From Ostreococcus lucimarinus (Eukaryota), in NCBI GenBank assembly GCA_000092065.1, contig CP000601.1: a DNA stretch of 64,000 nucleotides; one strand, given 5' to 3'. Shown piece by piece: positions 3,961 through 57,457 of the stretch. Every line of letters starts with the position of its first letter. The first letter of the stretch is position 1. A program made the translations under genes and the position numbers. A model generated the notes under the pieces. It saw only the letters and a program-made list of their open reading frames with translations, was not told where the DNA came from and did not search any database.

Positions 3961-4137
3961 GTCGTTTCGTTTCGCTCGGCGGTCGTTTCGAGTCGGGCGT
4001 GAACGTGCGGCGCGGTGTGAGGCTGGTGCCAGGCTCGTTCGAGACCGAGAACGACGACATCGGCGAGATCGGGCGACGCGACGAACATTGTTAGGAAATG
4101 TGCGTGATTAGTGGCATTGAATGTTTCGAGCGAGATT

Positions 4138-5259
4138 TCACGATCCTCGACGCGCGGAGCGGCGACGGACGGTCGAAGAGGGTGACGCTGTCGGTTTTGC
4201 GTCGGCGCGCGCGACGGCGACTGTGGTTTTTCTCGCGCGAGCCGTTTTGGGCGCGGCGGCGGCGGCGGTTTTCGGCTTCCCACTCATCGCGTACGCGAGA
4301 CCGCCGGTGACAACCATGACGGCGCTGATGGCGCCATTGTAACTCAAACACTGTCTCGCGTCGTCCGAGCAAAATAAGACGTGCGAAAACGCGATGACGC
4401 CGACGCTGCGAATCGCGTTCGAGAGCGCCAACTGCGTGGCGCCCGCTCTGGCGACGACAGCCATCATCATCTTCACCATGAACGCCCGACTGAGCATGTT
4501 TCCTAGGTGCACCTTTAAAATCGATGACACATCTCGCGGCGAGGCGTTGTAATACGCCCATACCATCCCGTCCATATCGCGCGCCGTCCTCGCGAGCGTG
4601 TAAATCGCAAACGCCGCCAACCCGCACGTTCCCATCAGCATCGTCTGCGCGTTCCCGCTCAGACTCGATTTCGACGCGCTCAGGTATTCCATGACCAATC
4701 CCCGAAACCCATAACTCACCGTCGCCGCGTTCGCGATCAAGATCCCCCTCGCGTCGATCGCCGTCCCGCGCCTCGCCGCCTCGTCCGCCACGTCCTTCGC
4801 CTTCACCGCCAGCCCACAAATCACCACCGCGATCGCCCCAATCTGCCCCTTAGTGAACGTGCGTTTCAGCACCACCTTCGACAGCAACGCCGAGAGCGGA
4901 ATGAGCAACCCAGAGATGGTTTGGTACAGCGGTCCCCCGAGCGCTCGCATCGCCTCGAACGCGCACGTCAGCCCAAACAAATCAAACACCGGCAGCAACA
5001 GCGCCGCGCGCGGGAACTTTCCCGCGCGCCTCGCCGTCGCCGTCACTCGCCCGTCTCTTCTCGCGCGTAATCGCGCCATCAGGACGCCCGCGCTCGCGCT
5101 CGCGGCGTCGCTCGCGTAAATCATGCCCGTCAACGGCTGCGCCTCCGGCGACACCAATCGCGCGTCCAACACGCGCTGCGCCGTGAGAAAGTAACACACG
5201 CCGAACGCGACGTGCGCGCACATCGCCGGGATCGCGCTCTTCGGCGCGTCGCGCGCCAT
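4138..5259 (-). CDS. multi-pass membrane transporter, drug/metabolite-transporter (DMT) superfamily-like (SLC35F/CRT-like)
   Basis: 373-aa ORF with about 9-10 hydrophobic helices and an R/K/A-rich soluble C-terminal tail. Family assignment is by overall architecture only. The start could be the later Met (MCAHVAFGV). Confidence 0.55.
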   Translation of the reverse strand: MARDAPKSAIPAMCAHVAFGVCYFLTAQRVLDARLVSPEAQPLTGMIYASDAASASAGVLMARLRARRDGRVTATARRAGKFPRAALLLPVFDLFGLTCAFEAMRALGGPLYQTISGLLIPLSALLSKVVLKRTFTKGQIGAIAVVICGLAVKAKDVADEAARRGTAIDARGILIANAATVSYGFRGLVMEYLSASKSSLSGNAQTMLMGTCGLAAFAIYTLARTARDMDGMVWAYYNASPRDVSSILKVHLGNMLSRAFMVKMMMAVVARAGATQLALSNAIRSVGVIAFSHVLFCSDDARQCLSYNGAISAVMVVTGGLAYAMSGKPKTAAAAAPKTARARKTTVAVARADAKPTASPSSTVRRRSARRGS

Positions 5260-5276
5260 CGCGGCCGCGTCGCGAA

Positions 5277-7829
5277 GTGTCGCGACGCGCCGCGAGCGCC
5301 GCCCCCTCGCGACACTTGGCGACGCGACGAAAACTCGAAATGCCGCGCGCGTCGACCGCCGACGCGGACGCGGACGGGAGCGACGTCGAGTTTAACCCCT
5401 CGTTCACGTTCGACGCGTCGGACGACGACGACGGGCGCGGGACGCGCGCGGGACGAGCGACGAAGGGACGCGGCGGCGGCGGCGGCGGACGCGCGGCGAC
5501 CGAGGCGTGGAACTTTGGCGACGCGCGCGAGGCGCGCGCGCGCGAGCTGCGAGCGAACAAGATGACGAGCGTGGACGAGAAGATCGCGCGGGCGAGAGGG
5601 CGCGGGAGGCGAGGGAGCGCGAGCGCGGGTGGGTCGGAGGACGAGTACGGGAGCGACTCGGAGGACGCGCCGCTGCCGGGCGAGGACGACGGCGAGACGG
5701 ATGACGACGCGAGCGTCAGTGGAGACAGCGAGAGTGGTGAGGAGAGCGAGAGCGGTGATGATGACGACGACGAGAGCGAGAGCGAGCGCGAGCGCGAGCG
5801 CGAGCGCGAGGAGGAAGAGGAGGATGGGACGAGCGAAGGCGAGGAAGAGCGCGAGGCGCGCGAGGAAGACGCGGCGAAGGACGAGAAAGCAAAGACGCCC
5901 ACGGCGACGGCGACGTCGTCGGAGAGTGATTCCGAGTCGGAGGATGGGTTTCAAGAGCGCGCGGTCGTCAAGGGGGCGAAAGGGGACACGACGTTCGACG
6001 CGAAGGCGTTCGACGAGTTGCACCTGTCGCGGCCGCTGACGCGAGCGTGCGAGGCGCTCGGGTATAAGAAACCGACACCGATTCAGGCGGCGGTGATTCC
6101 GATCGCGATGACTGGTCGCGACGTCTGCGGGCGAGCGGTAACGGGGAGCGGGAAGACGGCGGCGTTTATGCTGCCGCAGTTGGAGCGGATGTTACATCGA
6201 GGACCGAGGCCGGCGGCGGCGACGCACGTGTTGGTCTTGGTGCCGACGCGCGAACTTGCGGTTCAGGTGCATCAAATGACGGAAAGTCTCGCGCAGTTTA
6301 CAACAATTCGAGCCGTGCTCGTCGTCGGTGGATTGTCGGCGAACGTGCAAGCAGCTGCGCTGCGCACTCGACCCGAAATTGTCGTGGCGACGCCCGGTCG
6401 CGTCATCGACCACGTGCGAAACACGCACTCGTTTGGGCTAGAAGATCTCGCGACGTTGATTTTAGACGAAGCCGATCGTTTGCTGGAGATGGGATTCTTG
6501 GAAGAGATCAAAGAAATTGTTCGACAATGCCCGAAGAAGCGCCAAACGTTATTATTCAGCGCCACGCTCACCGCCGGCGTCGAGGCGCTGGCGAGTCTTT
6601 CGATGAAGAATCCGGCGAGGCTTTCCGCGGACACGCTCGGCACGACGCCCAAGCGGTTGGTGGAGGAAGTGTTAAAGCTCAAACCTAACCAAAGTGCTCA
6701 GAAAGAGGCGTTCTTGATGGCCATTGTGAGTCGTTCTTACGACAAGTCGACCATTATATTTTCCCAAACCAAGCAAGAGGCGCATCGTTTGAAGATCATC
6801 ATGGGTTTAAGCGACATCAAAGCGGGTGAGTTACACGGGGACATGACGCAGACGCAGCGCTTAGCAGCGCTCGATGAATTTAGGACGGGCACAGTCACGC
6901 ATTTGATCGCCACAGACGTCGCCGCCAGAGGCTTGGATATTCCATCCGTCGACGCGGTGATTTCGTTCGACGCGCCGAAGACTTTGGCGAGCTATTTACA
7001 CCGAGTCGGGCGCACAGCGCGCGCGGGGAAGAAAGGCACGGCGTTGACCTTCATGGAAGAATCCGATCGTAAACTAGTCAAAACCATAGCAAAACGAGGG
7101 GCGAACCTCAAAGCGCGAATCGTGCCCGGGAACATCGTCGCCGAGTGGCACAAGAAAATCGAGGATATGGAGGAGCAAATTGTGCAAATCAACTACGAAG
7201 AGCGCACCGAACGTCAGCTTCAAAAGGCCGAAATGGAGGCAAATAAGGCTTCGAACATTCTCGAGCACGCGGCTGAGATCAAATCGCGACCGGCGAAGAC
7301 ATGGTTCCAGAGCGAACGCGACAAACGCAACGCGCAAAAAGACGCGCTCAAGGCGATGGAAACAGCCGAAATGGACTTGATGGATCGAAAGTCTCACCGC
7401 AAGGGCGCCAAGCGCCGACAGGAAGCGGCCGGTCCCGATCGTTTACCCGACAGCAAGCGCGCGCGACGCAAACTCGCGCAACAGGCGCTATACAAAAAGG
7501 AGCGCGGCGACGACGACACCCCTCGAGGCGGCTTTCGCGTGACCAAGGGCGTCAAATCCGTCAAAGCCATCGAACGCGAGGCCCGCTTGACCGGCGGCGT
7601 CGCCACCAAAGTCGTCCGCATGGTCAAAAACGCGCGCGATCCCAAGGCCAAGGCCAAGCGCGCCGCGCGCGCCGACGTCCACGACGACGACGACGCGCGC
7701 GTCCAATCCTCCGGCCGCGGCGCCGATTTCCGCGGAGGATTTCGCGGCGCGAGCCCGGGCGCCCCCGCCAAGCCCTTCAAGACCGCCCGCGGCAAGTTCA
7801 AGAGCGCCAGCAAGTACCGCAGAAAGTAG
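5277..7829 (+). CDS. DDX27: nucleolar DEAD-box ATP-dependent RNA helicase (DDX27/Drs1-like)
   Basis: 850 aa. Acidic D/E/S-rich N-terminus. Q-motif FDELHLSRPLTRAC...PTPIQ, Walka A AVTGSGKTAAF, DEAD (LILDEADRLLEMGF), SAT, HRVGRTARAG. Basic K/R-rich C-terminus. Confidence 0.9.
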   Translation: MSRRAASAAPSRHLATRRKLEMPRASTADADADGSDVEFNPSFTFDASDDDDGRGTRAGRATKGRGGGGGGRAATEAWNFGDAREARARELRANKMTSVDEKIARARGRGRRGSASAGGSEDEYGSDSEDAPLPGEDDGETDDDASVSGDSESGEESESGDDDDDESESEREREREREEEEEDGTSEGEEEREAREEDAAKDEKAKTPTATATSSESDSESEDGFQERAVVKGAKGDTTFDAKAFDELHLSRPLTRACEALGYKKPTPIQAAVIPIAMTGRDVCGRAVTGSGKTAAFMLPQLERMLHRGPRPAAATHVLVLVPTRELAVQVHQMTESLAQFTTIRAVLVVGGLSANVQAAALRTRPEIVVATPGRVIDHVRNTHSFGLEDLATLILDEADRLLEMGFLEEIKEIVRQCPKKRQTLLFSATLTAGVEALASLSMKNPARLSADTLGTTPKRLVEEVLKLKPNQSAQKEAFLMAIVSRSYDKSTIIFSQTKQEAHRLKIIMGLSDIKAGELHGDMTQTQRLAALDEFRTGTVTHLIATDVAARGLDIPSVDAVISFDAPKTLASYLHRVGRTARAGKKGTALTFMEESDRKLVKTIAKRGANLKARIVPGNIVAEWHKKIEDMEEQIVQINYEERTERQLQKAEMEANKASNILEHAAEIKSRPAKTWFQSERDKRNAQKDALKAMETAEMDLMDRKSHRKGAKRRQEAAGPDRLPDSKRARRKLAQQALYKKERGDDDTPRGGFRVTKGVKSVKAIEREARLTGGVATKVVRMVKNARDPKAKAKRAARADVHDDDDARVQSSGRGADFRGGFRGASPGAPAKPFKTARGKFKSASKYRRK

Positions 7830-8020
7830 TTTTGTCGCGCATCTCCCTCATTCCGTCGATTTCGTCCGCATCCGCGCCTTCGTCTCGTCGCTTCGTCCCC
7901 TCGTCGGCGCGCCGCGAATCCGTCTCGCGCCGGCGCCCGCGCGCGCCCAACCGACACGATGACGCGATCGCGCGTCCGCACAGCCCGGCGCGCCGCGATC
8001 GCGCGACCCGGTCGCGCGAC

Positions 8021-9160
8021 GAGATGACGATCGCGTCGCTCCGCCGCGCGTCTCCGCGCGCCGCGGCGACGCGCCGTGAACGCGCGACGACGACGACGAC
8101 GCGATCGCGCGGCGCGCGATCGACGCGCGCGATCGACGCGCGCGCGCGCCGCGGACGCGTCTGCGGCGGCGACGCACCGCGAGGAGACGTGCGAACGCGC
8201 GCGAAACCGCCGCAGCGCGACACGGGGATCGCGAAAGAGGACGAGGCGTTCGAGGACGCGGACGACGAGGACGACGGCGCGGCGGGCGCGAGCGAGGACG
8301 GCGCGCGAGGCGGAAACCGGGAAACGTCGACGTCCGTGGAGGAGAAGGGAGGAATGAAGACGACGCGAAAGCGAGGATTCGATCGTGGAGAAGGTGGGTA
8401 TCAGTCGAGGTGGTGGACGACGAAGAGAGATTGCCCGGATGGGCGAAGCGGATCGAGCGAGACGCGGTGGGCGAAGTGCGATTTTAGCGGTTACAAGGAG
8501 CTCGGGTTCGAGAAGAGCGGATTTAACGACACGGGTGAGACGTGGTGGGAGACGTGGCGAGAGATCTATTGCCGGGATGATTTTACGGGCGTCGAACACA
8601 TCGAGAGGAGCGCCGATAAGTGGGCGCGAGACGCGCAGAGTAAGGAGTGGCAGGAGAAGTGGTGGGAGCGGTACTACGCCAACGGCGCCGTCGAGCGAGG
8701 GGTGGAAAAGAGCGGGCGAGAGGTTCGACAGGCGTGGTGGGAGAAGTGGGGAGAGCAGTACGATGGCGAGGGCGCGACGCTGAAGTGGACGGATAAGTGG
8801 GCGGAGAACGGCATGGGGATGCGATGGGGCGATAAATGGGAAGAGCGCCGAAGCAAGATTGGCAGCGGACGCAAGAGCGGGGAGACGTGGCGCGTCGGTG
8901 AAGATGGCGAACGGTTCAGCCGGACGTGGGGAGAAGTGTTATCCCCCGATGGTAGCGTGCGAAAGTTTGGGAACAGCACTACGGGGGAGAGTTGGGACAC
9001 AACCGTGGTCGAGAACGTGTACTTTGACAAGAGCAAGCCGCCGACGTGGCAAGAGGTGTTGAGTTCGAGCGAACGCTTAATGTCGATAGAATTGACGCCT
9101 GTGAGCCAAGACGACGACGACGACGACGATAAGTGGTCGCTCGCGAGAAACGCGCCATAA
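8021..9160 (+). CDS. Trp-rich acidic repeat protein with a predicted organellar presequence
   Basis: In-frame ATG at 8021 (MTIASLRRASPRAAATRRERATTTTTRSRG...), after the helicase stop at 7829. The body holds at least 8 degenerate repeats of [KT]WW?E[KT]W..Y / KW.E (WWETWREIY, KEWQEKWWERYY, WWEKWGEQY, KWTDKWAENG, RWGDKWEERR...). It ends in a poly-Asp (GAC)n tract. Confidence 0.5.
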   Translation, partial: EMTIASLRRASPRAAATRRERATTTTTRSRGARSTRAIDARARRGRVCGGDAPRGDVRTRAKPPQRDTGIAKEDEAFEDADDEDDGAAGASEDGARGGNRETSTSVEEKGGMKTTRKRGFDRGEGGYQSRWWTTKRDCPDGRSGSSETRWAKCDFSGYKELGFEKSGFNDTGETWWETWREIYCRDDFTGVEHIERSADKWARDAQSKEWQEKWWERYYANGAVERGVEKSGREVRQAWWEKWGEQYDGEGATLKWTDKWAENGMGMRWGDKWEERRSKIGSGRKSGETWRVGEDGERFSRTWGEVLSPDGSVRKFGNSTTGESWDTTVVENVYFDKSKPPTWQEVLSSSERLMSIELTPVSQDDDDDDDKWSLARNAP

Positions 9161-9220
9161 TTAAGTACTATTCAATTAATTTAACGAAATCTTTCTCTTT
9201 CAATTACACAAGTTCATCAT

Positions 9221-10524
9221 TTAGAATTCCATCCCAGACTGTTGCTCCGCCTTGGCTTGACGCGTCTTTGCGGTGAGCCGCTCGATGTTTTCCCTCGCGC
9301 ACGCGTTCCAGAACGTGTCGTTAAAAGTTTTGATCGCCCCGTCTAAGGTTTGCGCACCGGAATCCAGATCGACGACGGTGGGCACGAGTTCCGGATTGAA
9401 GGAATCCGCGGTGGCGGGATCCATGGGCACGCACACACGCCCAGTTTTTGGGTGAACGCAAAACGGACCCTTCAACAAGTGATTCATGTGTCTAGACACC
9501 TCGATATCGACTCGAGGGTAGATGTGCCAGAGGATTATCTTTTCGAGCGCACCGGTAAGCTTGTAATTATTTTTCTTCAAAGAGTCTTGCACGCGGCGCT
9601 CGATGACACCCCAGCGGTCGACCGAGTTGAGCGAACTCGTCGCAAACTCCGACGCGAGATCCTCTCTAATGTTTTCGTCGGGAATCAGATTGAGGAGTTG
9701 CTCGAGCTTGGTTTTGTCCTCGAGAATTCGCTGCGTGGGCAAGTACGACTCGATCCAATATTGTTTCAAGACGCCGTCGTACGCGCGCTTCACCGAAGGG
9801 TGCATCGGCGTCGACGACAACACGCGGCGCCCCTGACCCTCGCCCTTGACGACGGCGAAATACTCGGCAACCGCAGAGCGAGCTTCGTCGCTCAACTTTC
9901 TCGCGCGCTCATCGCTGATCCAGCAGTGAATACCGCGACGACCGGAATAGACCCACAACAAGTGCTTGAAACCGAAATCCTCGCGCAAGCCGACGTCGAG
10001 CACCTTGAGCGCCACCGTCATCAACGGCCAGCACTTTCCACAGATCCCAGCCTCCTTGCAGCACGTCCGCACGTCGTCGTAATCCGTCATATCGATATCA
10101 AAAACCAACTCCCGCTCCTCCGGTTTTAACTCCACCGTGTGCCTGTCGGACGGTCTGCGGTTACAAATCGGCCCGAATTCGATGCGCGCCGGCTTTTTCC
10201 GCTCCACGTTTGTCTTAAAATCCTTCGCGTCCACGAAACTCTGATACCGCGCAAAAATCTCTCCCCCGCCCTCTTCTTGTTCCTTATCCAGCACGAAACA
10301 AAACTCCCGCCGGCTCGGGTACGTCTTCTCCGCCCTCGCGTGTCGTTCGTCGTTTCCGTGCGCCAACCACTTGAACAACAGATCCGCCGGGTAAAATTGT
10401 TTATAATACCTATACATCAAGCTCTTCACCCGCGCCTTCCCCACGTTCCCCGTGTTGAGCGCGACGTTTTCCTTCTCCCCATCCTCCGTCTTCAATCGCT
10501 TCGTCTCCGGTTCGACCGTCGCCA
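9221..10524 (-). CDS. PRI1: DNA primase small (catalytic) subunit PriS/PRIM1
   Basis: Proposed start MATVEPETKRLK (ATG at 10524..10522). YRYYKQFYP, ELVFDIDMTDYDD (catalytic DxD), CGKCWPLMTVALKVLD, RRGIHCWISD and YDGVLKQYW are all primase small-subunit hallmarks. The upstream in-frame extension to 10822 is low-complexity R-rich. Confidence 0.9.
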
Positions 10525-10778
10525 TCCTTTGTCGATCGTCACCGCGTCGATCGTCACCGCGTCGGCGCGTCTCCCGCGTCGTCTCTCGCGTCGTCTCGCG
10601 TTTGTTCTCGCGTTCGTTCGCGCGTCCGACGCCTCGAAAGCTTCGCCGCGCGCGCGCGTCTCCCGCGTCGCGTCGCGTCGCGCCGCGCGTCGCGCAGTCG
10701 CGCGGTCGTCGCTGGAATTTTAAATTTTTCGCGCCACCTGTCGCGGCGTTTGAAAATCCTCCCGTGTGTGTCTTCGCA

Positions 10779-10835
10779 CTGTTTACCCATACGTGTCGGA
10801 AATCTTGTGACTGTTTACCCATACGTGTCGGAAAT
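10779..10835 (+). promoter_or_regulatory. tandem direct repeat (2 x 25 bp, CTGTTTACCCATACGTGTCGGAAAT, 7-bp spacer) in the primase/USP bidirectional promoter, abutting the USP ATG
   Basis: Copy 1 is 10779..10803 and copy 2 is 10811..10835; the last T of copy 2 is the T of the USP ATG (10834..10836). The related CTGTTTACCCACACGACATCGACG lies at 55681 upstream of UGDH. Confidence 0.5.
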
Positions 10836-12777
10836 GAACGCGCGCGCGCGCGCCGACGCCGCGCGACGACGGACGACGACGCGCGCGATGGCCGCGATGG
10901 ACGACGCGCGCGCGAGCGCGACGGCCGTCGTCGACGCGCACGTCGCGCGCGGCGCGCTGACGACGGACGACGCGCGGACGCTGCGCGAAACGATCGCGCT
11001 GGGACAAGCGCATCTGATCGCGGATTGGCCGGCGCCGGGCGTGGACGACGAGAGGAAGCGCGCGTTCGTCGAGGAAGTGCGACGGGCGGATCGGGGGTAC
11101 CCGGGGGGGGTGGCGAAGTACGTGTCGAACGCGCGCGAGCTGCTGAGGGCGTCGAAGGAGGGGAAGAATCCGTTCGAGGGATGGACGCCGAGCGTGCCCA
11201 CGGGGAAGACGGTGGAGTACGGATCGGCGGCGCACGAGATTCTGGAGAAGATTGGGATGCGGGAGACGGCGGAGACGTGCTTCGTGCTCGTCGCGGGGGG
11301 GTTGGGAGAGCGATTGGGGTACTCGGGGATCAAGGTCGCGCTGCCGGTGGAGCGGGCGACGAACGCGTGCTATTTGGAGTTGTACGTGAAGAATATCTTG
11401 GCGATGGAGAAACGCGCGGAGGGTGCGGAGGGTGCGACGAACGCGGGTGGGTGCGGGTGCTTCGGCGGTGGCGGCGCGAAGGCGAAATCGTCCACGAAGA
11501 TTCCGTTGGCGATCATGACGTCGGAGGACACGCACGCGCTGACGCTCGATTTGCTCGAACGCAACGATTACTTTGGCGCGTCTCGCGATCAAATCACGCT
11601 CATGAAGCAAGAAAAGGTGCCGTGCTTGATGGATAACGATGCACGTTTGGCGGTGAAAGACGACGATCCTTACAAGCTCGCGCTCAAGCCGCACGGCCAC
11701 GGTGACGTGCACTCTCTCCTGCACACGAGCGGGTTGTTATCAAAGTGGATGAGCCAAGGCAAGAAGTGGGTCGTCTTCTTTCAAGACACGAACTCGCTCG
11801 TGTTCCGCGTCATCCCTGGTGCGCTCGGGGTGTCGAAGACGATGAATCTTGAGTTCAATTCTTTGTGCGTTCCGCGAAAAGCCAAGGAAGCGGTCGGTGC
11901 GATTTCGTTGCTAACTCACGAGGATGGACGCAAGATGACCATCAACGTCGAATACAACCAGCTCGATCCGCTTTTGCGAGCCACTACGAATCCCGAAGGC
12001 GACGTCAACGATGCCACGGGCTTCTCCCCATTCCCGGGTAACATCAATCAGCTCATCGTGAGTCTTCCAGAGTACGCAAAACAACTCAAGAAGACTGGCG
12101 GCGCGATCGAAGAATTCGTCAATCCCAAGTACAAGGATGAGACAAAGACGGCTTTCAAATCGCCGACGCGATTGGAGTGCATGATGCAAGACTATCCCAA
12201 GAGCCTCGGATCGAAGGCTAAGGTTGGTTTCACCGTCTTTGCGAACTGGATTGGCTACAGCCCGGTGAAGAACTCTCCGGCGGACGGTTTGGCCAAGTTC
12301 AAATCTAACGGCCCGACGCACACGGCGACGAGCGGCGAGTTTGAGTTTTACGAATCGTGCGCAAACTTGTTGCGTTTGGCCGGTGCCGACGTCCCCGCCG
12401 CCGCCGTCGACGCTGAATTCAACGGTATGAAGCTTCCCATGGGTCCACGTGTTGTGCTCGGTCCGGATGTCGCCACATCTTTTGATGAACTCAAGTCGAA
12501 AGTCGGCGCCGTCAAGTTGGGCGCGAAGAGCGCGCTCGTCGTCGAAGGCTCTGGCGTCAATTTGAAAAACGTCGAAGTGGATGGTGCGCTCGTCATCAAG
12601 GCGTGCGAGGGCGCGGAAGTCATCGTCGATGGTTTGAAAGTGACGAACAAGGGTTGGCAGTGGAAGCCGACCGGCAAAGGTGCGCCCGAAGTCGACGCGC
12701 TCGCGGGATTCGTCGTGAAGAAAAACGAAACGGCCGAGTACGTCTTCGACAAGCCTGGCAAGTACACGCTCCCGTAA
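10834..12777 (+). CDS. USP: UDP-sugar pyrophosphorylase (USP, UTP-monosaccharide-1-phosphate uridylyltransferase)
   Basis: 647 aa from MNARARADAARRR. Motifs FVLVAGGLGERLGYSGIK, IPLAIMTSEDTH, KPHGHGDVH and NINQLIV are characteristic of plant-type USP / UDP-GlcNAc pyrophosphorylase-fold enzymes. Confidence 0.85.
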   Translation: MNARARADAARRRTTTRAMAAMDDARASATAVVDAHVARGALTTDDARTLRETIALGQAHLIADWPAPGVDDERKRAFVEEVRRADRGYPGGVAKYVSNARELLRASKEGKNPFEGWTPSVPTGKTVEYGSAAHEILEKIGMRETAETCFVLVAGGLGERLGYSGIKVALPVERATNACYLELYVKNILAMEKRAEGAEGATNAGGCGCFGGGGAKAKSSTKIPLAIMTSEDTHALTLDLLERNDYFGASRDQITLMKQEKVPCLMDNDARLAVKDDDPYKLALKPHGHGDVHSLLHTSGLLSKWMSQGKKWVVFFQDTNSLVFRVIPGALGVSKTMNLEFNSLCVPRKAKEAVGAISLLTHEDGRKMTINVEYNQLDPLLRATTNPEGDVNDATGFSPFPGNINQLIVSLPEYAKQLKKTGGAIEEFVNPKYKDETKTAFKSPTRLECMMQDYPKSLGSKAKVGFTVFANWIGYSPVKNSPADGLAKFKSNGPTHTATSGEFEFYESCANLLRLAGADVPAAAVDAEFNGMKLPMGPRVVLGPDVATSFDELKSKVGAVKLGAKSALVVEGSGVNLKNVEVDGALVIKACEGAEVIVDGLKVTNKGWQWKPTGKGAPEVDALAGFVVKKNETAEYVFDKPGKYTLP

Positions 12778-13107
12778 GCGTTTCTCTTCTCCCTCGTCCT
12801 AGTAAAAACCACCAGCGACGCAAAAACACGCCATTTGAATTGAAATAACAACACGAATGAATACTTTGTGGACGCACGTGATTACTTTATTACAGTTGCT
12901 CGCGGGAGACAGCGCTGGGCCATCGCCTTCGAGGCGTGCGCGGCATCGTCGAAGTGAGGTGGGACATTTTCAAAATGGTCATGTGCCCCGTTTCCGGCGA
13001 CCTTCTGTCGATAGTGGCTTAAATAACGCACGGAGTGTCGCGAAACGCGGAGACAGAGCTCTCAAATTCATTACAAGCCGACTCGCGTAAAGTAGTCGTT
13101 AATTTAT

Positions 13108-14343
13108 TCACGCGTCGTTCGCGACTTTCATCGTGCCGCAGCACTTGGTCGCCTGACGCGTTTCGGTCGTCGATTGGTGTCCGCAATAAAGTTTGTACGG
13201 ACCTTGGCATCCGCACCAGAAGCACGCACAACCGCTCACGCAGCCCATCAATGGACCACAATATTTATTGTCGTGATCGTACCGGAGCGAAAAGTCGCGC
13301 TTTGTCGTTCGGTCACACACCGCGATTTGGTTGAAGTACTCGCAAAAATCGTCAAACTCCATCCAAAACACGCCGTCGTGATGATCGTTCACGTACGCGA
13401 GCTCCTTCGCGATGGCCGGGTGTTTGTCCCATTCTTTCGATCCATCAGCCCAAGCGCCCTTCCATTCAAACGTCGACCACGGATTGCGAAGCTTGATGAA
13501 ACGCTTTCCACCGACGCCCCAAGAGCGTCCAGCCCAACGCACGGAGATGACGGAGAACAAGTGACCGGACACCAAGCCGGTGGTTTCGTCTTTGCTCTCG
13601 CCATTTTTAGTCATCCTCGACACGGCGATCAGGGACTTGATGCTGTCGTACTGGGTCAGGATGTTGAACAATTTATCGCGCACGATGTTTTCCTCGACTT
13701 CTTCGTGATAGATGCGATCCTTCTTACCGCCGTCACCGGGCTTACCGATAAACTTCATGTTGTGTCGCCGCCACGTGCGTTCGACGTCCATGCGCTTCTT
13801 GAGCAAGAAGACGTTATCGCCCGTGAGCGCGTGCGTGGCCCACGTGCCGAACCCGCCGTCCAGCGCGGCGTAGCTCCCCATAAACTTAGCCATCGCCTTC
13901 TCCACGATCAAAGGCCAAAACTCGTTGTTGTGCGGTTGCATAAATATCGGATTCTTCGTCCCCTTGTAACAAGGAATGAGATCGTCCACCGTCACGGTGA
14001 CCCACCTCTTCTCCTTGCCGTCGTAAAACCGCACGCGATACTTGCCGCGAAGCGACTTTTCCCCGTTCAATATCAACCGTTTGATCGCTCCCGGGTGTTC
14101 CGCCAGGCACGCCAGCGCGCTCACCAACCAACAATCCCCGAGCTGGCCCTGCACGCAGTCCCGAGGTTCGATGATTCCCTGATACAGCACCATCGGCTTG
14201 TCCTCGCTCCCCGCGCTCAGGTCGTCGACGCGCGCCCAATCGCACCCGCGAAATTCGCAATCCACCCCGAGCGCCGCGTCGCCCGCCCAGACCTTATCCT
14301 CGTACCGAAAGCATTCCAGCAGGCAACAGCACAGCGATCCCAT
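13108..14343 (-). CDS. calpain-type Ca2+-dependent cysteine protease with N-terminal MGSLCCC acylation motif and Cys-rich C-tail
   Basis: Catalytic QGQLGDCWLVSALACLAEHP (active-site Cys), papain-like core with His/Asn region (SGHLFSV...RNPW). Preferred start is M at 14343..14341 (MGSLCCCLLE: Gly2 myristoylation + Cys palmitoylation consensus). The ORF also stays open to 14532. Confidence 0.8.
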   Translation of the reverse strand: MGSLCCCLLECFRYEDKVWAGDAALGVDCEFRGCDWARVDDLSAGSEDKPMVLYQGIIEPRDCVQGQLGDCWLVSALACLAEHPGAIKRLILNGEKSLRGKYRVRFYDGKEKRWVTVTVDDLIPCYKGTKNPIFMQPHNNEFWPLIVEKAMAKFMGSYAALDGGFGTWATHALTGDNVFLLKKRMDVERTWRRHNMKFIGKPGDGGKKDRIYHEEVEENIVRDKLFNILTQYDSIKSLIAVSRMTKNGESKDETTGLVSGHLFSVISVRWAGRSWGVGGKRFIKLRNPWSTFEWKGAWADGSKEWDKHPAIAKELAYVNDHHDGVFWMEFDDFCEYFNQIAVCDRTTKRDFSLRYDHDNKYCGPLMGCVSGCACFWCGCQGPYKLYCGHQSTTETRQATKCCGTMKVANDA

Positions 14344-14606
14344 CGCGCCGCGCGCGCCCAGCCGCGCGTACGCGCCGAGGCACGGCGTCAGATACGCATC
14401 GATCGCGTTCCACGCGAGGACGAACGGCGCGACGAGCGCCGCGACCGCGGGGTGCCCGTTCCCGGCGCAGTGCGTCGCCGCGCACGATTCCTGCGACTCG
14501 ACGTCGCGCGCGTTCGAGCGCGCGGGCGCCATGGCGCGCGTCGACGTGACGCCCGACCGTTCGTTCGCGGTCGGTCGACGCGCGCGTCGCCACAGCGCCG
14601 CGCGCG

Positions 14607-16661
14607 ATGTCGAGCGACGGCGACGACGGCGACGACGGCCGAGGGCGCGACGACGGCGACGACGGCGACGACGCGCGGCGCGCGGGCGCGTCGCGCGCGC
14701 GCGCGGACGCGAGAGGGACGAATAATCATCGCAATCACGACGATGGCGTTCGAAATCAACGACGACGACGGTCGAGCGACGACGCGCGCGACGGCGCAGA
14801 CGACGAGACGACGAACGCGCGAGCGACCGACGGTGACGACGAACGAACGGACGCGCGACTGTTCCCGCCGACGCGCGCGGACGAGGAGGGGACGAAGACG
14901 CGGACGCGCGGGGACGAGGCGACGCGCGGGACGAACGAGGCGAAGGAAAACGACGACGAGGGGCGAAGGAAAGCGAACGAGCGCGGGAAAACGCGCGGGA
15001 GGGAAGGCGATGGCGGCGTGGGAGCGACGGGGGGGTCGATCGTGGACGCGGCGAGGGAGAGCGCGACGGCGGGGTTGGCGGTGTGCGGAAACGTGTACGT
15101 GCGGAGCGTGGAGAATAAGCTGCCGCCGGGAGTGCGATCGGTGGTGAAGGGCGCGAGGTGCGAGGTGCGGACGTTCGCGGATGTATTCTTTGCGACGATG
15201 TTCGCGTCGTGCGCGCTGACGGTGCGCGTGGTGGGGGCGGGGGCGGGGGCGGCGCGACGCGCGGGCGAACGGACGATGTCGACGGCGGGGGAGGCGAGCG
15301 CGAGAATCGCGCGCGAGGTCAAGATGAAGACGATGACGATCGCCAAGGGCGGGAACGACCGCAAAGAAGCGCGTGGGGAGGCGTCGAAGGCGTCTGAACC
15401 GTCGTCGGTGGCCTCGTTGGCGAAGGAGAAGACGAAAGAGGCGTTGCGAGGGCTCGACGACGCCAAGCTGGCCGCGCTGGCGAGCGTGAAATCTTTCTTC
15501 GATGACCGAAATAAACCAGGCGGGGACGGGACGAAGTCGAAAAAGAGTGGCGAAGCGTCCGGGTCGAAGTCGAAAAACGCGAAGAAGAAGTCGGTCGATG
15601 TGACGAAGACCAATGGCGACGCGAAGCCGCGGCGGAAGAAGTCGGTCGCGACGGAGGATGGGAAACTGAAAAGGCGCGTCGATCCTTTGCGAAGCCTCGT
15701 GAGCGAAGAAACGTCTAAAAAGGTTAAAGAAAAGTTAAAAGGGTTTGAGGATGCCGTTGGAAGTTGGCCAATGGTGCAAGCGGTGAAGCCACGCGTGGAT
15801 GGCTTCGTTGAAGCGTTCGCGGAGCGTCAACGCGTCGTCGTCGCCAAGCTGCACTCGTCCACCGAAGGCGGCGTCGACACCATACGCGGTGCGCGTGCGA
15901 GCTTGGTCCATCACGCTAAGGGCTTAAAAACACGCGTCGAGGATGGTGTCACCGGCGCGCGCGGTATTTTGGCTGGTGGAATCGCGAGCACGAGTAGACT
16001 CGTATCTCCGCTCCTCCGTCACGACAGGAGCGCGACGCAAAAAAGTCGACTGAAGACGTTTTTAAACCCTGGTTCGAGCGGACGTGCGATTATGAGAGAT
16101 GACGAGTACAGCGCTGCACAGATTGAGCGGCACCACGAGCTGAGTAAACAAGTGGAGCGCGCGGCGAAGCTTTCTCGCGAGGCGGATGGCGAGTTGCTCG
16201 CCAAGCCGCTGCGCGTCGTCGTGCAGCCGGAGGACAATCTGTTCGACATCGCCAGCATCGCTGGCATCAGCGTCATGGATCTCGCGCGCTACAACAACTT
16301 GCGTCCGCATCCAGAGAGCCACTTCCTCAAGATTGACCCCGGCCAGGTCCTGTACGTCCCTTCGCGGTCTTTGCTCGACCGCCTTCCCGCGATCGATCGC
16401 GCTAGAGAGCCCAAATACGAGCTCTCCGTCCGCGTCACCGACGTCCCGCGCGCGGCACCACCACCGACCGCTTCGTCTCGCCTCGTGCATCCATCGCGTC
16501 ACTCCAGGCACAAATCCGTGCGCGAATCCGACGACGCGTTGGAGTCATCCAACTTTGCCGCGTCTCTGGGCGTCTCGCTCGCCCTGTGCGCCGCCGCGCT
16601 CGCCCTGCGCAGCGTTCGCGAAGCCATGAATTCCGACGACGAAGACGTCAACGACGCCTAA
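14607..16661 (+). CDS. LysM-domain protein (low-complexity N-terminus, K-rich middle, C-terminal hydrophobic tail)
   Basis: LysM: VVVQPEDNLFDIASIAGISVMDLARYNNLRPHPESHFLKIDPGQVLYVP. C-terminal SLGVSLALCAAALALRS is a likely membrane anchor. The N-terminal 200 aa is D/G/R low complexity, so the true start is uncertain (possibly MSTAGEAS at about 15277). Confidence 0.55.
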   Translation: MSSDGDDGDDGRGRDDGDDGDDARRAGASRARADARGTNNHRNHDDGVRNQRRRRSSDDARDGADDETTNARATDGDDERTDARLFPPTRADEEGTKTRTRGDEATRGTNEAKENDDEGRRKANERGKTRGREGDGGVGATGGSIVDAARESATAGLAVCGNVYVRSVENKLPPGVRSVVKGARCEVRTFADVFFATMFASCALTVRVVGAGAGAARRAGERTMSTAGEASARIAREVKMKTMTIAKGGNDRKEARGEASKASEPSSVASLAKEKTKEALRGLDDAKLAALASVKSFFDDRNKPGGDGTKSKKSGEASGSKSKNAKKKSVDVTKTNGDAKPRRKKSVATEDGKLKRRVDPLRSLVSEETSKKVKEKLKGFEDAVGSWPMVQAVKPRVDGFVEAFAERQRVVVAKLHSSTEGGVDTIRGARASLVHHAKGLKTRVEDGVTGARGILAGGIASTSRLVSPLLRHDRSATQKSRLKTFLNPGSSGRAIMRDDEYSAAQIERHHELSKQVERAAKLSREADGELLAKPLRVVVQPEDNLFDIASIAGISVMDLARYNNLRPHPESHFLKIDPGQVLYVPSRSLLDRLPAIDRAREPKYELSVRVTDVPRAAPPPTASSRLVHPSRHSRHKSVRESDDALESSNFAASLGVSLALCAAALALRSVREAMNSDDEDVNDA

Positions 16662-16838
16662 CTCGCGCGCGAATCGTTCATTGTATATCTCATTTACCGC
16701 TAGCGCACAATTCCACGACCCCTCCCACGCGTCTCGATCGCCGACAGACTTTACCCGCGCGCGTCCCGGCGGGGACAGTCACCGGGCAATTCTTTCGAAT
16801 CGCGCATTCGCAATCGGTCAAATCGCGACTCGTGCGCG

Positions 16839-17720
16839 ATGCCGACCGCGCTCCGAGCGAGCCGCGCGCGAACGCCGACGAGCGAAAGCGCGCACGCGGT
16901 CGATGGCTTGCCCGGCACGCAACCGCGCGCGAAGAAAACAAAGGAAGTGAGCGGCGAATCGCTCGGCAAGTACCGAGGCGTGTACAAGTGGAAAAATGGA
17001 AAATACCGCGCGATGATCAATAGCGAGGGCAAGACGTACGGGCTGGGCGTGTTTAGCGACGTCGAGGCGGCGGCGATGGCGTTCGACCGGGCGAGCATCG
17101 TGCTCGGGAGGCAACCGAAGAATTTCGCGACGTCGAATCGGTATGAATTTGAGTTGGACGAGCTCTCAAAGTTGAACGGGAACATACAAGCGTTGCGAAG
17201 GATGACGAGCGATAGGGCGCCGGATAAGTCGAAGAGTATGAGCGTGTATAGAGGCGTGCACCGGTGCTCGCGAACGGGACGATATCGGAGCGAGATTGAA
17301 CACAACGGTAAAAAGTTTAGCTTGGGAGTGCACGCAAAGGAGGAGGACGCCGCGAGGACGTACGATCAAGCGGCTATAGTGTGTCTCGGCGGATTGGCCG
17401 TGACGAACTTCGATCGGCAGGAGTACCAACTCGCGCATTTAGACCATTTTGCGGGTGATTTAGACAAATATAGAGCGAGCTTACACATCAAGATTCGAAG
17501 ACAAGGTACCTCTCGATCCCGTTGTACGAGCAAGCACGAGGGTGTACGCAAGTACGAACACACCTGGAAGAGCGGTAAGAAGACTGTCAAATGGCGTGCC
17601 GAAGTTAAGGTTGAGGGTAAATCGAAACAGTTGGGTTATTTCCGTTCCGAGGACGAAGCGGCTCAGGCGGTGAAGACATTCCGCGTTGGGTACGCCGCCA
17701 CGGCCACGGCGGGCGCCTAG
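16839..17720 (+). CDS. AP2/ERF-domain transcription factor with three AP2 domains
   Basis: Three YRGV-type AP2 units: YRGVYKWKNGKYRAMI...GLGVFSDVEAAAMAFDRA; YRGVHRCSRTGRYRSEI...SLGVHAKEEDAARTYDQAA; VRKYEHTWKSGKKTVKWRAEV...LGYFRSEDEAAQAV. Confidence 0.85.
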   Translation: MPTALRASRARTPTSESAHAVDGLPGTQPRAKKTKEVSGESLGKYRGVYKWKNGKYRAMINSEGKTYGLGVFSDVEAAAMAFDRASIVLGRQPKNFATSNRYEFELDELSKLNGNIQALRRMTSDRAPDKSKSMSVYRGVHRCSRTGRYRSEIEHNGKKFSLGVHAKEEDAARTYDQAAIVCLGGLAVTNFDRQEYQLAHLDHFAGDLDKYRASLHIKIRRQGTSRSRCTSKHEGVRKYEHTWKSGKKTVKWRAEVKVEGKSKQLGYFRSEDEAAQAVKTFRVGYAATATAGA

Positions 17721-17792
17721 ACTAGTTCCAACTACTTTTACATGCAATAACATCACAACGAATCTACAAATACCGACTACGAATACTAAAGA

Positions 17793-54278: not shown

Positions 54279-55556
54279 TTAATACGTAAACTCACCGTAT
54301 TCACTCTTCACCACGACTTCAGACTTGCCATCCTTGGCTTCGACTCTGCCGACGACGCGGGCGTCGATGTTAAAGCTCTGGCTAATATCGATAATCTTTT
54401 GCGCGTGTTCGGGGGAGCAGTAAAACTCGAGACGATGTCCGCAGTTGAACACTTTGTACATCTCGCTCCATTCGGTGTTGGAGCACTCCTGGATCAAGCG
54501 GAAGAGCGGGGGAATGGGGAACATGTTATCCTTGACGACGCGCAAGCCGTCGAGGAGAAAGTGTCCAACCTTGGACTGCGCGCCGCCGCTGCAGTGCACC
54601 ATGCCGTGAATATCCCTCACGTCCATGGCATCGAGCACGGCTTTCACCACGGGGGCGTACGTTCGCGTCGGACTGAGCACCAACTTGCCAACCGTCACGC
54701 CGGTTTCCGGCTCGACGTCGGTGAGCTGATACTTGCCGCTGTACACCAACGATTCGGGTACGTTCGGATCGAACGTTTCCGGATATTTTTCCGCCAAATT
54801 CTTCGCAAACACGTCGTGTCGAGCAGACGTCAATCCGTTGCTTCCCATTCCGCCGTTGTACTCGCTCTCGTACGTCGCTTGACCGAACGACGCCAAACCG
54901 ACGACGACGTCTCCGGCGCGAATGTTGTCGTTACTCACCACCGCGTCTCTTCGCATGCGCGCCGTGACCGTGGTGTCCACCACCACCGTGCGCACTAAAT
55001 CACCCAAATCCGCGGTTTCACCTCCCGTGGACTTCACCCCGACCCCACACTCGCGCAAAGTCTCCAAAACCTCCTCCGTCCCGTTGATGAGCGCGCTCAG
55101 CACCTCCCCCGGAATCAAAGCCTTATTCCTCCCGATCGTGCTCGAGACGAATATGTTATCCACGCACCCGACGCACAACAAATCATCCGTGTTCATCACG
55201 ATCGAATCCTGCGCGATTCCTCGCCACACTCCCAAATCTCCCGTCTCTCTCCAGTACGCGTACGCCAGGCTCGTCTTCGTCCCCGCGCCGTCCGCGTGCA
55301 TGCACGTGCAGTACGCCTCGTCCCCAGCGATGTCCTCCACGATCTTACAGAACGCCTTCGGGAACAATCCCTTGTCCACCTTCTTTATCGCCGCGTGCAC
55401 GTCCTCCTTGGACGCGCTCACGCCGCGCATCGCGTACCGCTCGTCCGCCGCCGCGCTCGCCCTCGCGTTCGCCCTCGCGTTCGTTCGCGTCGTCGCGCGC
55501 GCGCGCCATCGCGACGGCATCGCGCGCGCCGTCGTCGTCGTCGTCGCCGTCGCCAT
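54279..55556 (-). CDS. purM: phosphoribosylformylglycinamidine cyclo-ligase (AIR synthetase, PurM)
   Basis: PurM N-domain MHADGAGTKTSLAY, GEVLSALINGTE, GGETADLGDLVRT, C-domain VHCSGGAQSKV. N-terminal T/A/R-rich transit peptide. Confidence 0.9.
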   Translation of the reverse strand: MATATTTTTARAMPSRWRARATTRTNARANARASAAADERYAMRGVSASKEDVHAAIKKVDKGLFPKAFCKIVEDIAGDEAYCTCMHADGAGTKTSLAYAYWRETGDLGVWRGIAQDSIVMNTDDLLCVGCVDNIFVSSTIGRNKALIPGEVLSALINGTEEVLETLRECGVGVKSTGGETADLGDLVRTVVVDTTVTARMRRDAVVSNDNIRAGDVVVGLASFGQATYESEYNGGMGSNGLTSARHDVFAKNLAEKYPETFDPNVPESLVYSGKYQLTDVEPETGVTVGKLVLSPTRTYAPVVKAVLDAMDVRDIHGMVHCSGGAQSKVGHFLLDGLRVVKDNMFPIPPLFRLIQECSNTEWSEMYKVFNCGHRLEFYCSPEHAQKIIDISQSFNIDARVVGRVEAKDGKSEVVVKSEYGEFTY

Positions 55557-55680
55557 CGCGCGCGTCGGTGTCGCGCGCCGCGCGTCGGTCGGCGCCGGCG
55601 ACGCGCGAGGTCGATTTCGAAATCGAATTCGAAATCACACCCGCGCGCGGTGCCAATACACGACCGACCGCGACGTCGGA

Positions 55681-55695
55681 CTGTTTACCCACACG
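55681..55695 (+). promoter_or_regulatory. third copy of the CTGTTTACCCA[CT]ACG element, 97 bp upstream of the proposed UGDH ATG
   Basis: ctgtttacccacacgacatcgacg at 55681, in the PurM/UGDH divergent promoter. It matches 14 of the first 15 nt of the 25-bp USP-promoter repeat. Confidence 0.4.
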
Positions 55696-55777: not shown

Positions 55778-55799
55778 ATGACGAGGCCGATCACGACGA
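55778..55799 (+). CDS. UGD: UDP-glucose 6-dehydrogenase, inferred 22-nt 5' micro-exon (MTRPITT + 1 nt)
   Basis: ATG ACG AGG CCG ATC ACG ACG A | GTGCGTGAAG. The exon is terminated by a GTGCGT donor, and the in-frame stop TGA sits inside that donor. A phase-1 junction with TA at 56064 yields Ile, giving [21 protein letters not shown]. Confidence 0.45.
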
Positions 55800-56063
55800 G
55801 TGCGTGAAGAACGACGCGAGCGACGCGACGCGACGCGACGCGAGACGACGCGACGCGCGAGACGACGCGACGAGGGCGATCGCGACGGTCGTCGGAAAGA
55901 TGTCCGGAAACCATCCGCGAGACGCGGCGACGACCGGAGACGCGACGACGGCGACGGGAGAGCGTTGGGACGGGCGCGAAAGATGGGAGAGCGCGCGACG
56001 GTGCGAATGGAGGCGCGCGAGGACGAAGGACTGACGACGCGCGCGGTTTCGGGGACGACGCAG

Positions 56064-57457
56064 TATGTTGCATCGGCGCGGGATACGTGGGCGGGCCGAC
56101 GATGGCGATGATCGCGAAGAAGTGCCCGCAGATCTCGGTCACGGTGGTGGACATCTCGCAGCCGAGGATCGACGCGTGGAACTCGAGCGAGCTGCCGATT
56201 TATGAGCCCGGGTTGGATGAGATCGTGTTCGAGTGCAGAGGGAAGAACTTGTTCTTTTCGACGGATGTCGAAGGGGCTATTCGAGACTGCGAGATGATTT
56301 TCGTCTCCGTGAACACGCCGACGAAGAAGACTGGTTTAGGAAAAGGTAAGGCGGCGGATTTGACGTACTGGGAGTTGGCGGCGCGCACCATCGCGGCGTG
56401 CTCCGAGAGTGATAAGATCATCGTTGAGAAGTCTACGGTGCCCGTGCGAACGGCGGAGGCCATTGAAAAGGTGCTCCAGCGCAACTGCCCGCACGACGGC
56501 GTGCGATTCGACATCTTGTCCAACCCAGAATTCTTGGCCGAAGGTACGGCCATTGTAGACTTGGATGCGCCCGATCGCGTGTTGATCGGGGGTAAGATTG
56601 AAAACGCCAAAGGTCAAGCGGCGGTGGACGCGCTCGTAGGCGTGTACTCCAACTGGGTACCGAAAGAGAACATTCTGACCGCTAACTTGTGGTCTGCCGA
56701 GCTCTCAAAGCTCGCTGCGAACGCATTCTTGGCGCAGCGCATTTCTTCCATCAACGCCATGAGCGCGCTTTGTGAAGCGACCGGCGCGGATGTCCAGCAA
56801 GTTTCGCACGCCATCGGCACCGACACGCGTATCGGCTCCAAATTTTTGAACGCCTCGGTCGGTTTCGGTGGCTCGTGCTTCCAAAAGGATATCTTAAACT
56901 TGGCATACATTTGTGAGTGCCACGGCTTGCCGGAAGTGGCGGAGTACTGGCACAGCGTTGTCGGCATGAACGACTACCAAAAGAGCCGCTTCGTCAAGCG
57001 CATGATTTCCGCCATGTTCAACACGATCAGCGGCAAGAAGATTTCAATGCTCGGTTACGCTTTTAAGAAAGATACGGGTGATACTCGTGAGTCTCCGGCT
57101 ATCGACGTCGGTCACGGCCTCATCGAAGACGGTGCGAAGCTCAATATTTATGACCCGAAGGTTGCTGCGGCGCAAATCGCGTTGGACATGGGCGAGGAAG
57201 CGATGAAATCCATCACGTGCTGCAAGACTCACACTGAGTCTTTGACTGGTGCGCACGCCGTGTGCATTATGACGGAATGGGACGAGTTCAAGACGTACGA
57301 CTGGGAAGCGATCTATGGCGTCATGCAAAAGCCGGCCTTTGTGTTCGACGGCCGCCTCATCTTGGACCACCAGAAGTTGAAGGACATTGGTTTCATTGTG
57401 TATGCGCTTGGGAAGCCTTTAGATCCTTTCCTTTGCTCCGCCGAAGGCGCACCGTAA
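56064..57457 (+). CDS. UGD: UDP-glucose 6-dehydrogenase (UGDH), main exon
   Basis: (I)[21 protein letters not shown] Rossmann start has no in-frame ATG upstream (in-frame stop at 55805). FVSVNTP, catalytic [39 protein letters not shown]. 457 aa, typical for UGDH. Confidence 0.9.

Follow-up and report, generated by a model that had tools for sequence, protein, structure and literature searches.

The 64,000-nucleotide stretch of the Ostreococcus lucimarinus contig CP000601.1 analysed here (the window) is gene-dense, has a GC content of 60.7%, and carries in two divergent intergenic regions the copies of a 16-bp element that is the subject of this analysis. One of these regions lies between the genes for the small subunit of DNA primase (start codon at 10525, minus strand) and UDP-sugar pyrophosphorylase (USP); the other lies between the genes for PurM (start codon at 55556, minus strand) and UDP-glucose dehydrogenase (UGDH) (Table 1). 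The 16-mer ACTGTTTACCCAYACG, at 10778, 10810 and 55680, is what the copies share, the preceding A being common to all three. A preliminary description of the window had recognised the divergent arrangement of both promoters, with which start positions and strands agree, and had proposed a shared cis-regulatory element for genes of nucleotide-sugar metabolism. What follows retains one half of that proposal, an element that behaves as promoter-proximal and whose recurrence is not due to chance, and gives up the other, its link to nucleotide sugars.

Table 1. Features of the window and of transposon-bearing metagenome contigs that are referred to in the text
Feature	Source	Position	Strand	Remarks and basis
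Tandem unit 1, 32 bp	window	10772..10803	+	sequence CTTCGCACTGTTTACCCATACGTGTCGGAAAT; holds the 16-mer ACTGTTTACCCATACG at 10778-10793; exact-match searches
Tandem unit 2, 32 bp	window	10804..10835	+	begins CTTGTGACTG, ends AAAT; 16-mer at 10810-10825
Third copy, ACTGTTTACCCACACG	window	55680..55695	+	PurM/UGDH divergent spacer; 15/16 positions match; exact and mismatch searches
AT-rich box, GAATTTTAAATTTTT	window	10715..10729		49 bp upstream of the first 16-mer; invariant columns in the USP-orthologue alignment
UDP-sugar pyrophosphorylase (USP) open reading frame	window	10834..12777	+	translation; homologues carry PF01704; downstream of the tandem copies
DNA primase small subunit	window	9221..10525	-	translation; orthologous neighbour carries PF01896; divergent partner of USP
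UDP-glucose dehydrogenase (UGDH)	window	55778..57457	+	exon 1 55778-55799 (22 nt), intron 55800-56063, exon 2 56064-57457
PurM (AIR synthase)	window	54279..55556	-	divergent partner of UGDH
Mutator-like transposase	L174	193-3351	-	
OTU-like protease	L174	4198-5916	+	
Terminal inverted repeats	L191	1815-1986 and 8530-8701		

At the USP start the element is part of a tandem array. The 25-mer CTGTTTACCCATACGTGTCGGAAAT occurs in two exact copies, at 10779-10803 and 10811-10835, just as had been described; the same search of shuffled windows gives 0 matches in 100 shuffles, and there is no third match in the 64-kb window even with up to three mismatches. The array as a whole (10772-10835) consists of two 32-bp units joined head to tail without a gap; ACTGTTTACCCATACG is present in each of the units, which differ from one another at three 5' bases only. 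What had been taken for a 7-bp spacer between the copies is actually the diverged 5' end of the second unit. The array rests on exact-match searches, and a tandem-repeat tool run on the window does not list it. The second unit does run into the USP start codon, its last two bases being the AT of the ATG at 10834-10836 that opens the reading frame. L113, L001 and L068 (loci outside the window are denoted by L numbers) have an ATG that aligns with this one, in a conserved CGG..ATG context; further in-frame ATGs at 10888 and 10897 are alternative candidate starts.

L113 is a strain sequence that shares 99.4% identity with 13.9 kb of the window (positions 4043-17911). Its unit 1 is exactly that of the window; its unit 2 reads CCCGTTTACCCATGCG and differs from the window at 6 positions. 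The array accordingly has the head-to-tail units and the between-strain variation of a tandem duplication or minisatellite, and its second copy is, to judge from these two sequences, young and strain-variable. The two sequences differ at 79 places, of which 14 fall in window positions 10807-10853, 47 bp that take in the second unit and the first USP codons; this is a local hypervariable spot, possibly generated by slippage or gene conversion.

From the start of the third copy it is 98 bp to the exon-1 ATG of UGDH (55778) and 124 bp to the ATG of PurM (55556). The recurrence of the element with one mismatch upstream of UGDH is thus as first reported, and the UGDH start that had been inferred at that time is right: splicing out the 264-nt intron, which has a GTGCGT donor and a branch point GGACTGACG at 56028, restores the canonical N-terminus, and the orthologues L007 and L012 also have the 22-nt first exon. 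The core TGTTTACCCAYACG is exact at 10780, 10812 and 55682, and 100 shuffles of the window, with up to two mismatches allowed, yield a mean of 0.2 matches. There is no other intergenic copy in the window; the remaining weak matches are CGTTTACCCGACA, which does lie within the DEAD-helicase reading frame to which it had been assigned (at 7440-7452, not at 7438), and AAAGTTTTCCCATACG, with 3 mismatches, in the P5A-ATPase reading frame at 61864, which is at chance level.

The least that could be made of these three copies is a single tandem duplication and one fortuitous 15/16 match elsewhere. Only two independent sites were known before the metagenome scan that is described below, and the sub-window was chosen post hoc; to that extent coincidence has a case. 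However, the estimated number of chance matches at 15/16 or better in 128 kb (both strands) is ~0.0015, and the scan lists 97 independent instances in large excess over shuffled sequence, so that the probability of a chance origin is negligible.

The preliminary description had proposed a scan of the source assembly for the element; a scan of metagenome (JGI) contigs with the consensus ACTGTTTRCCCAYACG returned at least 120 loci. Among the 120 that were listed, 99 have 54-75% GC, with a base composition and genes (PsaN, histidine-kinase rhodopsin) like those of Mamiellophyceae. The 97 non-redundant instances among the matches listed have 16 bases in common and unrelated flanks, with weak preferences only at positions -4, -2, -1 and +16; because their flanks are unrelated, the motif is, on the evidence of this alignment, a discrete element of 16-20 bp. 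Its commonest form, ACTGTTTGCCCATACG, accounts for 63 of the 97. In 717 kb of GC-rich listed loci there are 69, 66, 36 and 39 matches at 0, 1, 2 and 3 mismatches, respectively; the shuffled consensus finds ~0, 0, 0.3 and 3.8 in the same sequence. These loci thus hold a high-information motif set in otherwise unrelated DNA. Copies that the scan did not itself select suggest, as a rough estimate inferred from flanking sequence and not from a genome count, that a site occurs every 20-40 kb or so, which would amount to hundreds in each genome. A scan of viral contigs, which serves as background only, gave 51 matches, all in low-GC phage gene families and with a different mix of variants. In one locus (L151, ~1300-1600) the motif is repeated five times, every ~46 bp, between divergent genes for a Utp12-domain protein and SecY.

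Where the motif lies with respect to genes was assessed with rough gene calls, in which open reading frames were scored with the codon usage of the window. Of 61 classifiable matches, 22 are in coding sequence and 19, 18 and 2 are in divergent, tandem and convergent intergenic DNA; the corresponding background fractions of bases are 77%, 7.4%, 12% and 3.7%. These background values agree with published exon and intergenic totals for Micromonas (PMC4815162). The motif is thus found in divergent intergenic DNA ~4 times as often as the share of bases would predict, and in coding sequence less often; several of the nominally coding matches are in fact short introns or over-called N-termini. Among copies that have a gene start within 500 bp, 22 point towards the nearest one and 25 away from it; within the limits of these calls, location near promoters is independent of orientation. 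No strong companion emerges from k-mer co-occurrence around 80 solitary sites. The pentamer CGTGT is mildly enriched upstream of them (10/80 where 3 are expected, 3.3-fold), and TCCATG, probably start-codon context, is found downstream. The AT-rich box of Table 1 is present at USP and at the UGDH site of the window; no such box at a fixed distance was found across 69 other sites.

The predicted genes next to these sites are diverse: 47 were scanned, and the 32 to which a Pfam family could be assigned include ankyrin, Band 7, M18 peptidase, RRM, Myb, PurF, SLC13, PsaN, DNA polymerase A, UPF1, MBOAT, Glu/Gln-tRNA synthetase, SecY, Utp12, histidine-kinase rhodopsin, asparagine synthase and spermidine synthase. 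The sole nucleotide-sugar gene among the 47 is USP itself, on the nearly identical L113. The scan therefore bears out the expectation of enrichment near gene starts and disappoints that of clustering near sugar genes. The PurF gene (L097:164-1795), 208 bp from a copy of the motif, makes with the PurM of the window the only functional recurrence among neighbours, probably a matter of chance.

The history of the USP site can be followed in loci that were fetched by protein and hence independently of the motif, and in which the gene order primase-USP-calpain-LysM is kept. L001, whose USP is 94% identical to that of the window, has CACTGTTTGCCCATACG at the aligned position, and L068 (79% identical) has CACTGTTTGCACATACG. 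Across L001 and L068 the spacer can otherwise be aligned only in the AT-rich box and the ATG context. Since the USP copy has outlived its flanks, it appears to be under constraint. In L001 the motif is directly followed by an inverted copy, with which it forms the perfect palindrome TGTTTGCCCAT-ACG-ATGGGCAAACA. One lineage thus has a direct tandem and the other an inverted palindrome, and on that ground we infer that a second copy was acquired independently in each of the two. The AT-rich box GAATTTTAAATTTTT is also found in L001, L068 and L004; in the window it is abutted by the E2F-consensus-like TTTCGCGC (10727-10734), which may be relevant to S-phase control of primase.

The UGDH site has a different history. 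The collinear sequence of L007 and L008 (PurM 97% identical) is the diverged ACCGTTCGGCACACG; in L007 it is separated from the window copy by substitutions and one single-base gap, with no larger insertion, and this argues that the UGDH copy arose, or decayed, by point changes and not by insertion. Related sequences in inverted orientation, CTGTCACCCATAG and CTGCGTACCCATCCG, stand elsewhere in orthologous UGDH/PurM spacers.

These comparisons bear directly on the original idea of a regulon, an element that would co-regulate the supply of nucleotide sugars through USP and UGDH. Both window sites do flank genes for consecutive steps of a pathway, three lineages keep the motif upstream of USP, and the UGDH/PurM spacers of two other lineages hold the related inverted sequences just mentioned, of which CTGCGTACCCATCCG matches at 12 of 15 positions. 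On the other hand, preference for genes of the pathway is missing elsewhere: the neighbours at other sites are diverse and include no other sugar-nucleotide gene, and the GT64 glycosyltransferase gene of the window has no copy of the motif. Each window site also flanks a gene that has nothing to do with sugars (primase and PurM), and in L012 the related sequence is directed towards PurM. Moreover, at one site per 20-40 kb the number expected in 64 kb is about the two that are observed, and the probability that both would flank a sugar-related gene by chance is ~0.05, a rough estimate made post hoc. Co-regulation of this pathway is, in sum, highly improbable, and the case carries a general caution: a motif that is common to two neighbouring pathway genes in one window does not make a regulon.

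The same 16-mer is also found in mobile DNA. L174:1-6092 is an apparently complete 6.1-kb Mutator-like element (MULE) with terminal inverted repeats (TIRs) of ~165 bp (genes in Table 1), each of which has two outward-pointing 16-mers among GTATCCGAAA sub-repeats. In two related MULEs, L191 and L192, the transposase has only 36% identity to its L174 counterpart, yet CTCCAGAACACACCTCGCGTA-ACTGTTTGCTCATACG is still present at the inner border of the TIR; similar contexts are found in L181 and in the group formed by L119, L130, L102 and L110. A PIF/Harbinger-type transposase gene (L114:857-2553) likewise has a copy of the motif, 89 bp upstream of it. Finally, 34 copies reside in repetitive introns of ~78 nt with the architecture AG/GTAAGTATTTCCCATTTACC...-ACTG(A/T)TTGCCCATAC(G/A)-AGACTGAC-polyY-CAG (also written GTAAGTATTTCCCATTTACC...ACTGWTTGCCCATACR-AGACTGAC-polyY-CAG). 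In these introns the motif is in sense orientation and sits 1-3 nt before the GACTGAC branch point. The family is represented in L080, L082, L089, L090, L093, L094, L099, L116 and L129 (for example, L129 ~1500-1600), with several members per gene, and the loci concerned contain up to 12 additional motif copies, which the scan had not ascertained, per ~12 kb. The contigs are mostly of lower GC content (0.56-0.60), and their sample identifiers suggest that they are of polar type. Introner elements of Micromonas are described as short and as having a GACTGAC branch point (PMC3879977, PMC4540971), and the ~78-nt family, matched to them by architecture, probably corresponds to one that has been published. 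Outside the 16-mer, introner units and MULE TIRs are not significantly more alike than shuffled sequences (p 0.13-0.55). The possibility of a dispersed repeat family, which the preliminary description had set against its own proposal, is thereby half borne out: the motif does also occur in MULE TIRs and introners.

These facts can be read the other way around, and this is the main rival reading: the motif would be a sequence to which a MULE transposase or some domesticated relative binds. The solitary copies would then be relics, for the most part functionless, of MULE or MITE insertions into 5' regions, or else exapted sites read by a factor derived from a transposase, comparable to those of FHY3/FAR1 in plants. 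The paired, outward-pointing copies in the L174 TIRs, the retention of the motif at the inner TIR edge in elements whose transposases have diverged to 36% identity, and the similar contexts in L181 and the L119/L130/L102/L110 group are what a transposase site would lead one to expect. Mu-type elements prefer the 5' ends of genes, and this preference would explain the location bias. The sequence GCGCACCCGTGTG upstream of the L001 motif resembles GCGCACCTCGTGTG in L174, and the mild excess of CGTGT upstream of solitary copies can be counted on the same side. Against relics of this kind, the solitary copies have neither a TIR partner nor a shared flank; those of the window in particular lack both an inverted partner and any further copy within it, which parts of a transposon would be expected to have. 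The substitutions and single-base gap that separate the UGDH copy from L007 indicate that it evolved in place, and the survival of the USP copy beyond its flanks argues for constraint. That the motif also stands upstream of a Harbinger transposase gene and in introners is a difficulty for a strictly MULE-specific factor, a single transposase not being expected to serve across superfamilies. An origin of the motif in transposons is possible, and we hold it to be doubtful.

An element that acts at the level of RNA, for example in translation from a 5' untranslated region (UTR) or in splicing, is improbable. It would suit the USP lineages, in which every copy reads in the sense direction and lies no more than ~50 nt from the probable ATG, and the 34 introner copies with their place 1-3 nt before the branch point and their sense orientation; yet the intergenic copies are evenly divided in orientation (22 vs 25), and the motif occurs in transposon TIRs. 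Nor is there a conserved fold. The tandem copies of the window fold no better than shuffles (z = -0.98), the two introner units that were folded do so inconsistently and have no structure in common with the tandem copies or the L001 palindrome, and the palindrome taken alone folds well, trivially so. Rfam (gathering threshold) and tRNA scans of the whole window gave no match. The window copies themselves are intergenic and lack the splice sites, branch point and pyrimidine tract of an introner.

The simplest reading is therefore that the 16-mer is a recognition site for protein: a nearly invariant module is set in unrelated contexts, is enriched near gene starts with no preferred orientation, has repeatedly gained extra copies, has survived at USP and has diverse neighbours. 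Multiple copies arose independently in the window tandem, the L001 palindrome and the five-copy L151 array, and carriers as unrelated as MULE TIRs, the region upstream of the Harbinger gene and introners have nothing beyond the 16-mer in common. In this reading, to which we assign a probability of about one half and which is drawn from sequence comparison, ACTGTTTRCCCAYACG is the putative site of one DNA-binding protein near promoters, independent of pathway, in Micromonas-like Mamiellophyceae. One sequence-specific protein would bind the 16-mer, and its binding would affect transcription or local chromatin. Neither its orientation nor the pathway of the neighbouring gene would matter to the site, which would often be present more than once and would act like the site of a general regulatory factor and not like the operator of a regulon. 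At USP it has been duplicated in tandem, with a second unit that still differs from strain to strain; transposons and an introner family carry the same sequence.

Several observations count against a protein recognition site or weaken the case for it. Presence in transposon TIRs fits an origin in transposons equally well. Strain L113 has a decayed second tandem unit. Conservation among orthologues is incomplete: copies are kept at USP in L001 and L068, and L004 (USP 70% identical) retains TACCCATAC only; in three of the six USP lineages (L002, L067 and L069) no copy can be recognised, and the closest available relative (L007, L008) lacks the UGDH copy at the position that aligns with it. The preference for 5' over 3' non-coding DNA is modest (19/18/2 in divergent, tandem and convergent DNA, as compared with ~12.5/20/6 expected; chi-square p ~0.04), and the location bias as a whole depends on crude gene calls made with the codon usage of the window. 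The metagenome scan accepted only exact matches at 14 fixed positions, so that tolerance of mismatches is poorly sampled, and the listed loci were assigned to taxa by composition and gene content only.

A bolder version would have one protein, possibly derived from a MULE transposase or of Myb type, read the site in hundreds of promoters, in MULE TIRs and in the introner family; bolder still, the sites, at about one per 20-40 kb of intergenic DNA, could be sequence-defined chromatin boundaries or replication origins. This version is unlikely to be correct. Harbinger elements encode a Myb-like DNA-binding partner. The motif lies 202 bp upstream of a single-Myb-domain gene (L092:2177-3074), and this site and the one at the L114 Harbinger gene are a possible lead to the binding protein.

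The Mamiellophyceae are the smallest free-living photosynthetic eukaryotes, with intergenic regions of 200-300 bp, and to our knowledge almost no cis-regulatory vocabulary has been established for them. A near-invariant 16-mer that is easily scanned for is a concrete bait for its putative binding protein, and its occurrence in TIRs and introners connects promoters with DNA transposons and with intron-generating elements in a way that can be tested. If one protein did read the site in all of these carriers, it would provide a handle on a regulatory network that joins transposons and host, and possibly on the machinery that mobilises or targets introners; how such intron-generating elements insert is still described as unknown (PMC11282704). 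The 16-bp element is apparently undescribed, as the preliminary description had supposed. Literature searches for the motif string retrieved only unrelated papers, judged by their titles to contain it incidentally (for example as HA-tag codons, TACCCATACGAT), and searchable papers on promoter motifs of Micromonas and Ostreococcus describe no comparable motif for Mamiellophyceae.

Two other features of the window are worth recording. The PurM protein is ~71-72% identical to PurM of Bacteroidetes, which are almost as near to it as green-algal sequences are; on these identities, old horizontal transfer may be the reason. A protein with three DM10 domains (Rib72/EFHC-like, axonemal) is encoded at 19728-21170 on the minus strand; taken by itself, it points to a flagellate member of the Mamiellophyceae, like Micromonas or Mantoniella and unlike Ostreococcus or Bathycoccus.

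Among known systems, the introners of Micromonas (Worden 2009; Verhelst 2013, PMC3879977; Simmons 2015, PMC4540971; van Baren 2016, PMC4815162) are comparable in that the ~78-nt family carries the motif directly 5' of GACTGAC. Partial introner motifs have been found outside introns, near coding sequence or UTRs, in M. pusilla (PMC4540971, PMC4815162). The window copies differ from introners in being intergenic and without splice features. With the sites of MURA in Mutator TIRs and of FHY3/FAR1 in plants the 16-mer compares in that it is conserved in MULE TIRs and scattered in promoter regions of the host, as would be expected of a site that a transposase-derived factor binds. In contrast with these, it is also found near a Harbinger transposase gene and its solitary copies have no other MULE sequence around them, and the FHY3/FAR1 site, CACGCGC, is unrelated in sequence.

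Resemblances to the sites of other factors were considered and set aside. TGTTTAC and TGTTTGC fit the forkhead core (RYMAAYA), and GTTTRCC, together with the L001 palindrome, loosely resembles the RFX X-box GTTRCC-AT-GGYAAC, but the spacing of the latter misfits and neither factor family is known from green algae; we regard both likenesses as due to chance. The upstream element of plant snRNA genes (RTCCCACATCG) has CCCAYA.CG in common with the motif, and an AT box besides; the order and orientation are wrong, there is no snRNA gene, and the AT box is not general. For E2F, TCP site II and the telo-box, either sequence or spacing misfits or the factor family is absent.

The sites of general regulatory factors in yeast, such as Reb1 (TTACCCG) and Rap1 (ACACCCAYACAYY), provide the closest analogy for the protein recognition site that we favour. 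The host here is a green alga and the site is known from sequence alone. The window variant TTACCCATAC overlaps both the Reb1 and the Rap1 consensus, a resemblance that may be coincidental. What likens the two is their general character: like the 16-mer, the yeast sites are short and rich in information, lie in intergenic DNA close to promoters, stand in unrelated flanks and in either orientation, serve unrelated genes, and are often present in multiple copies.

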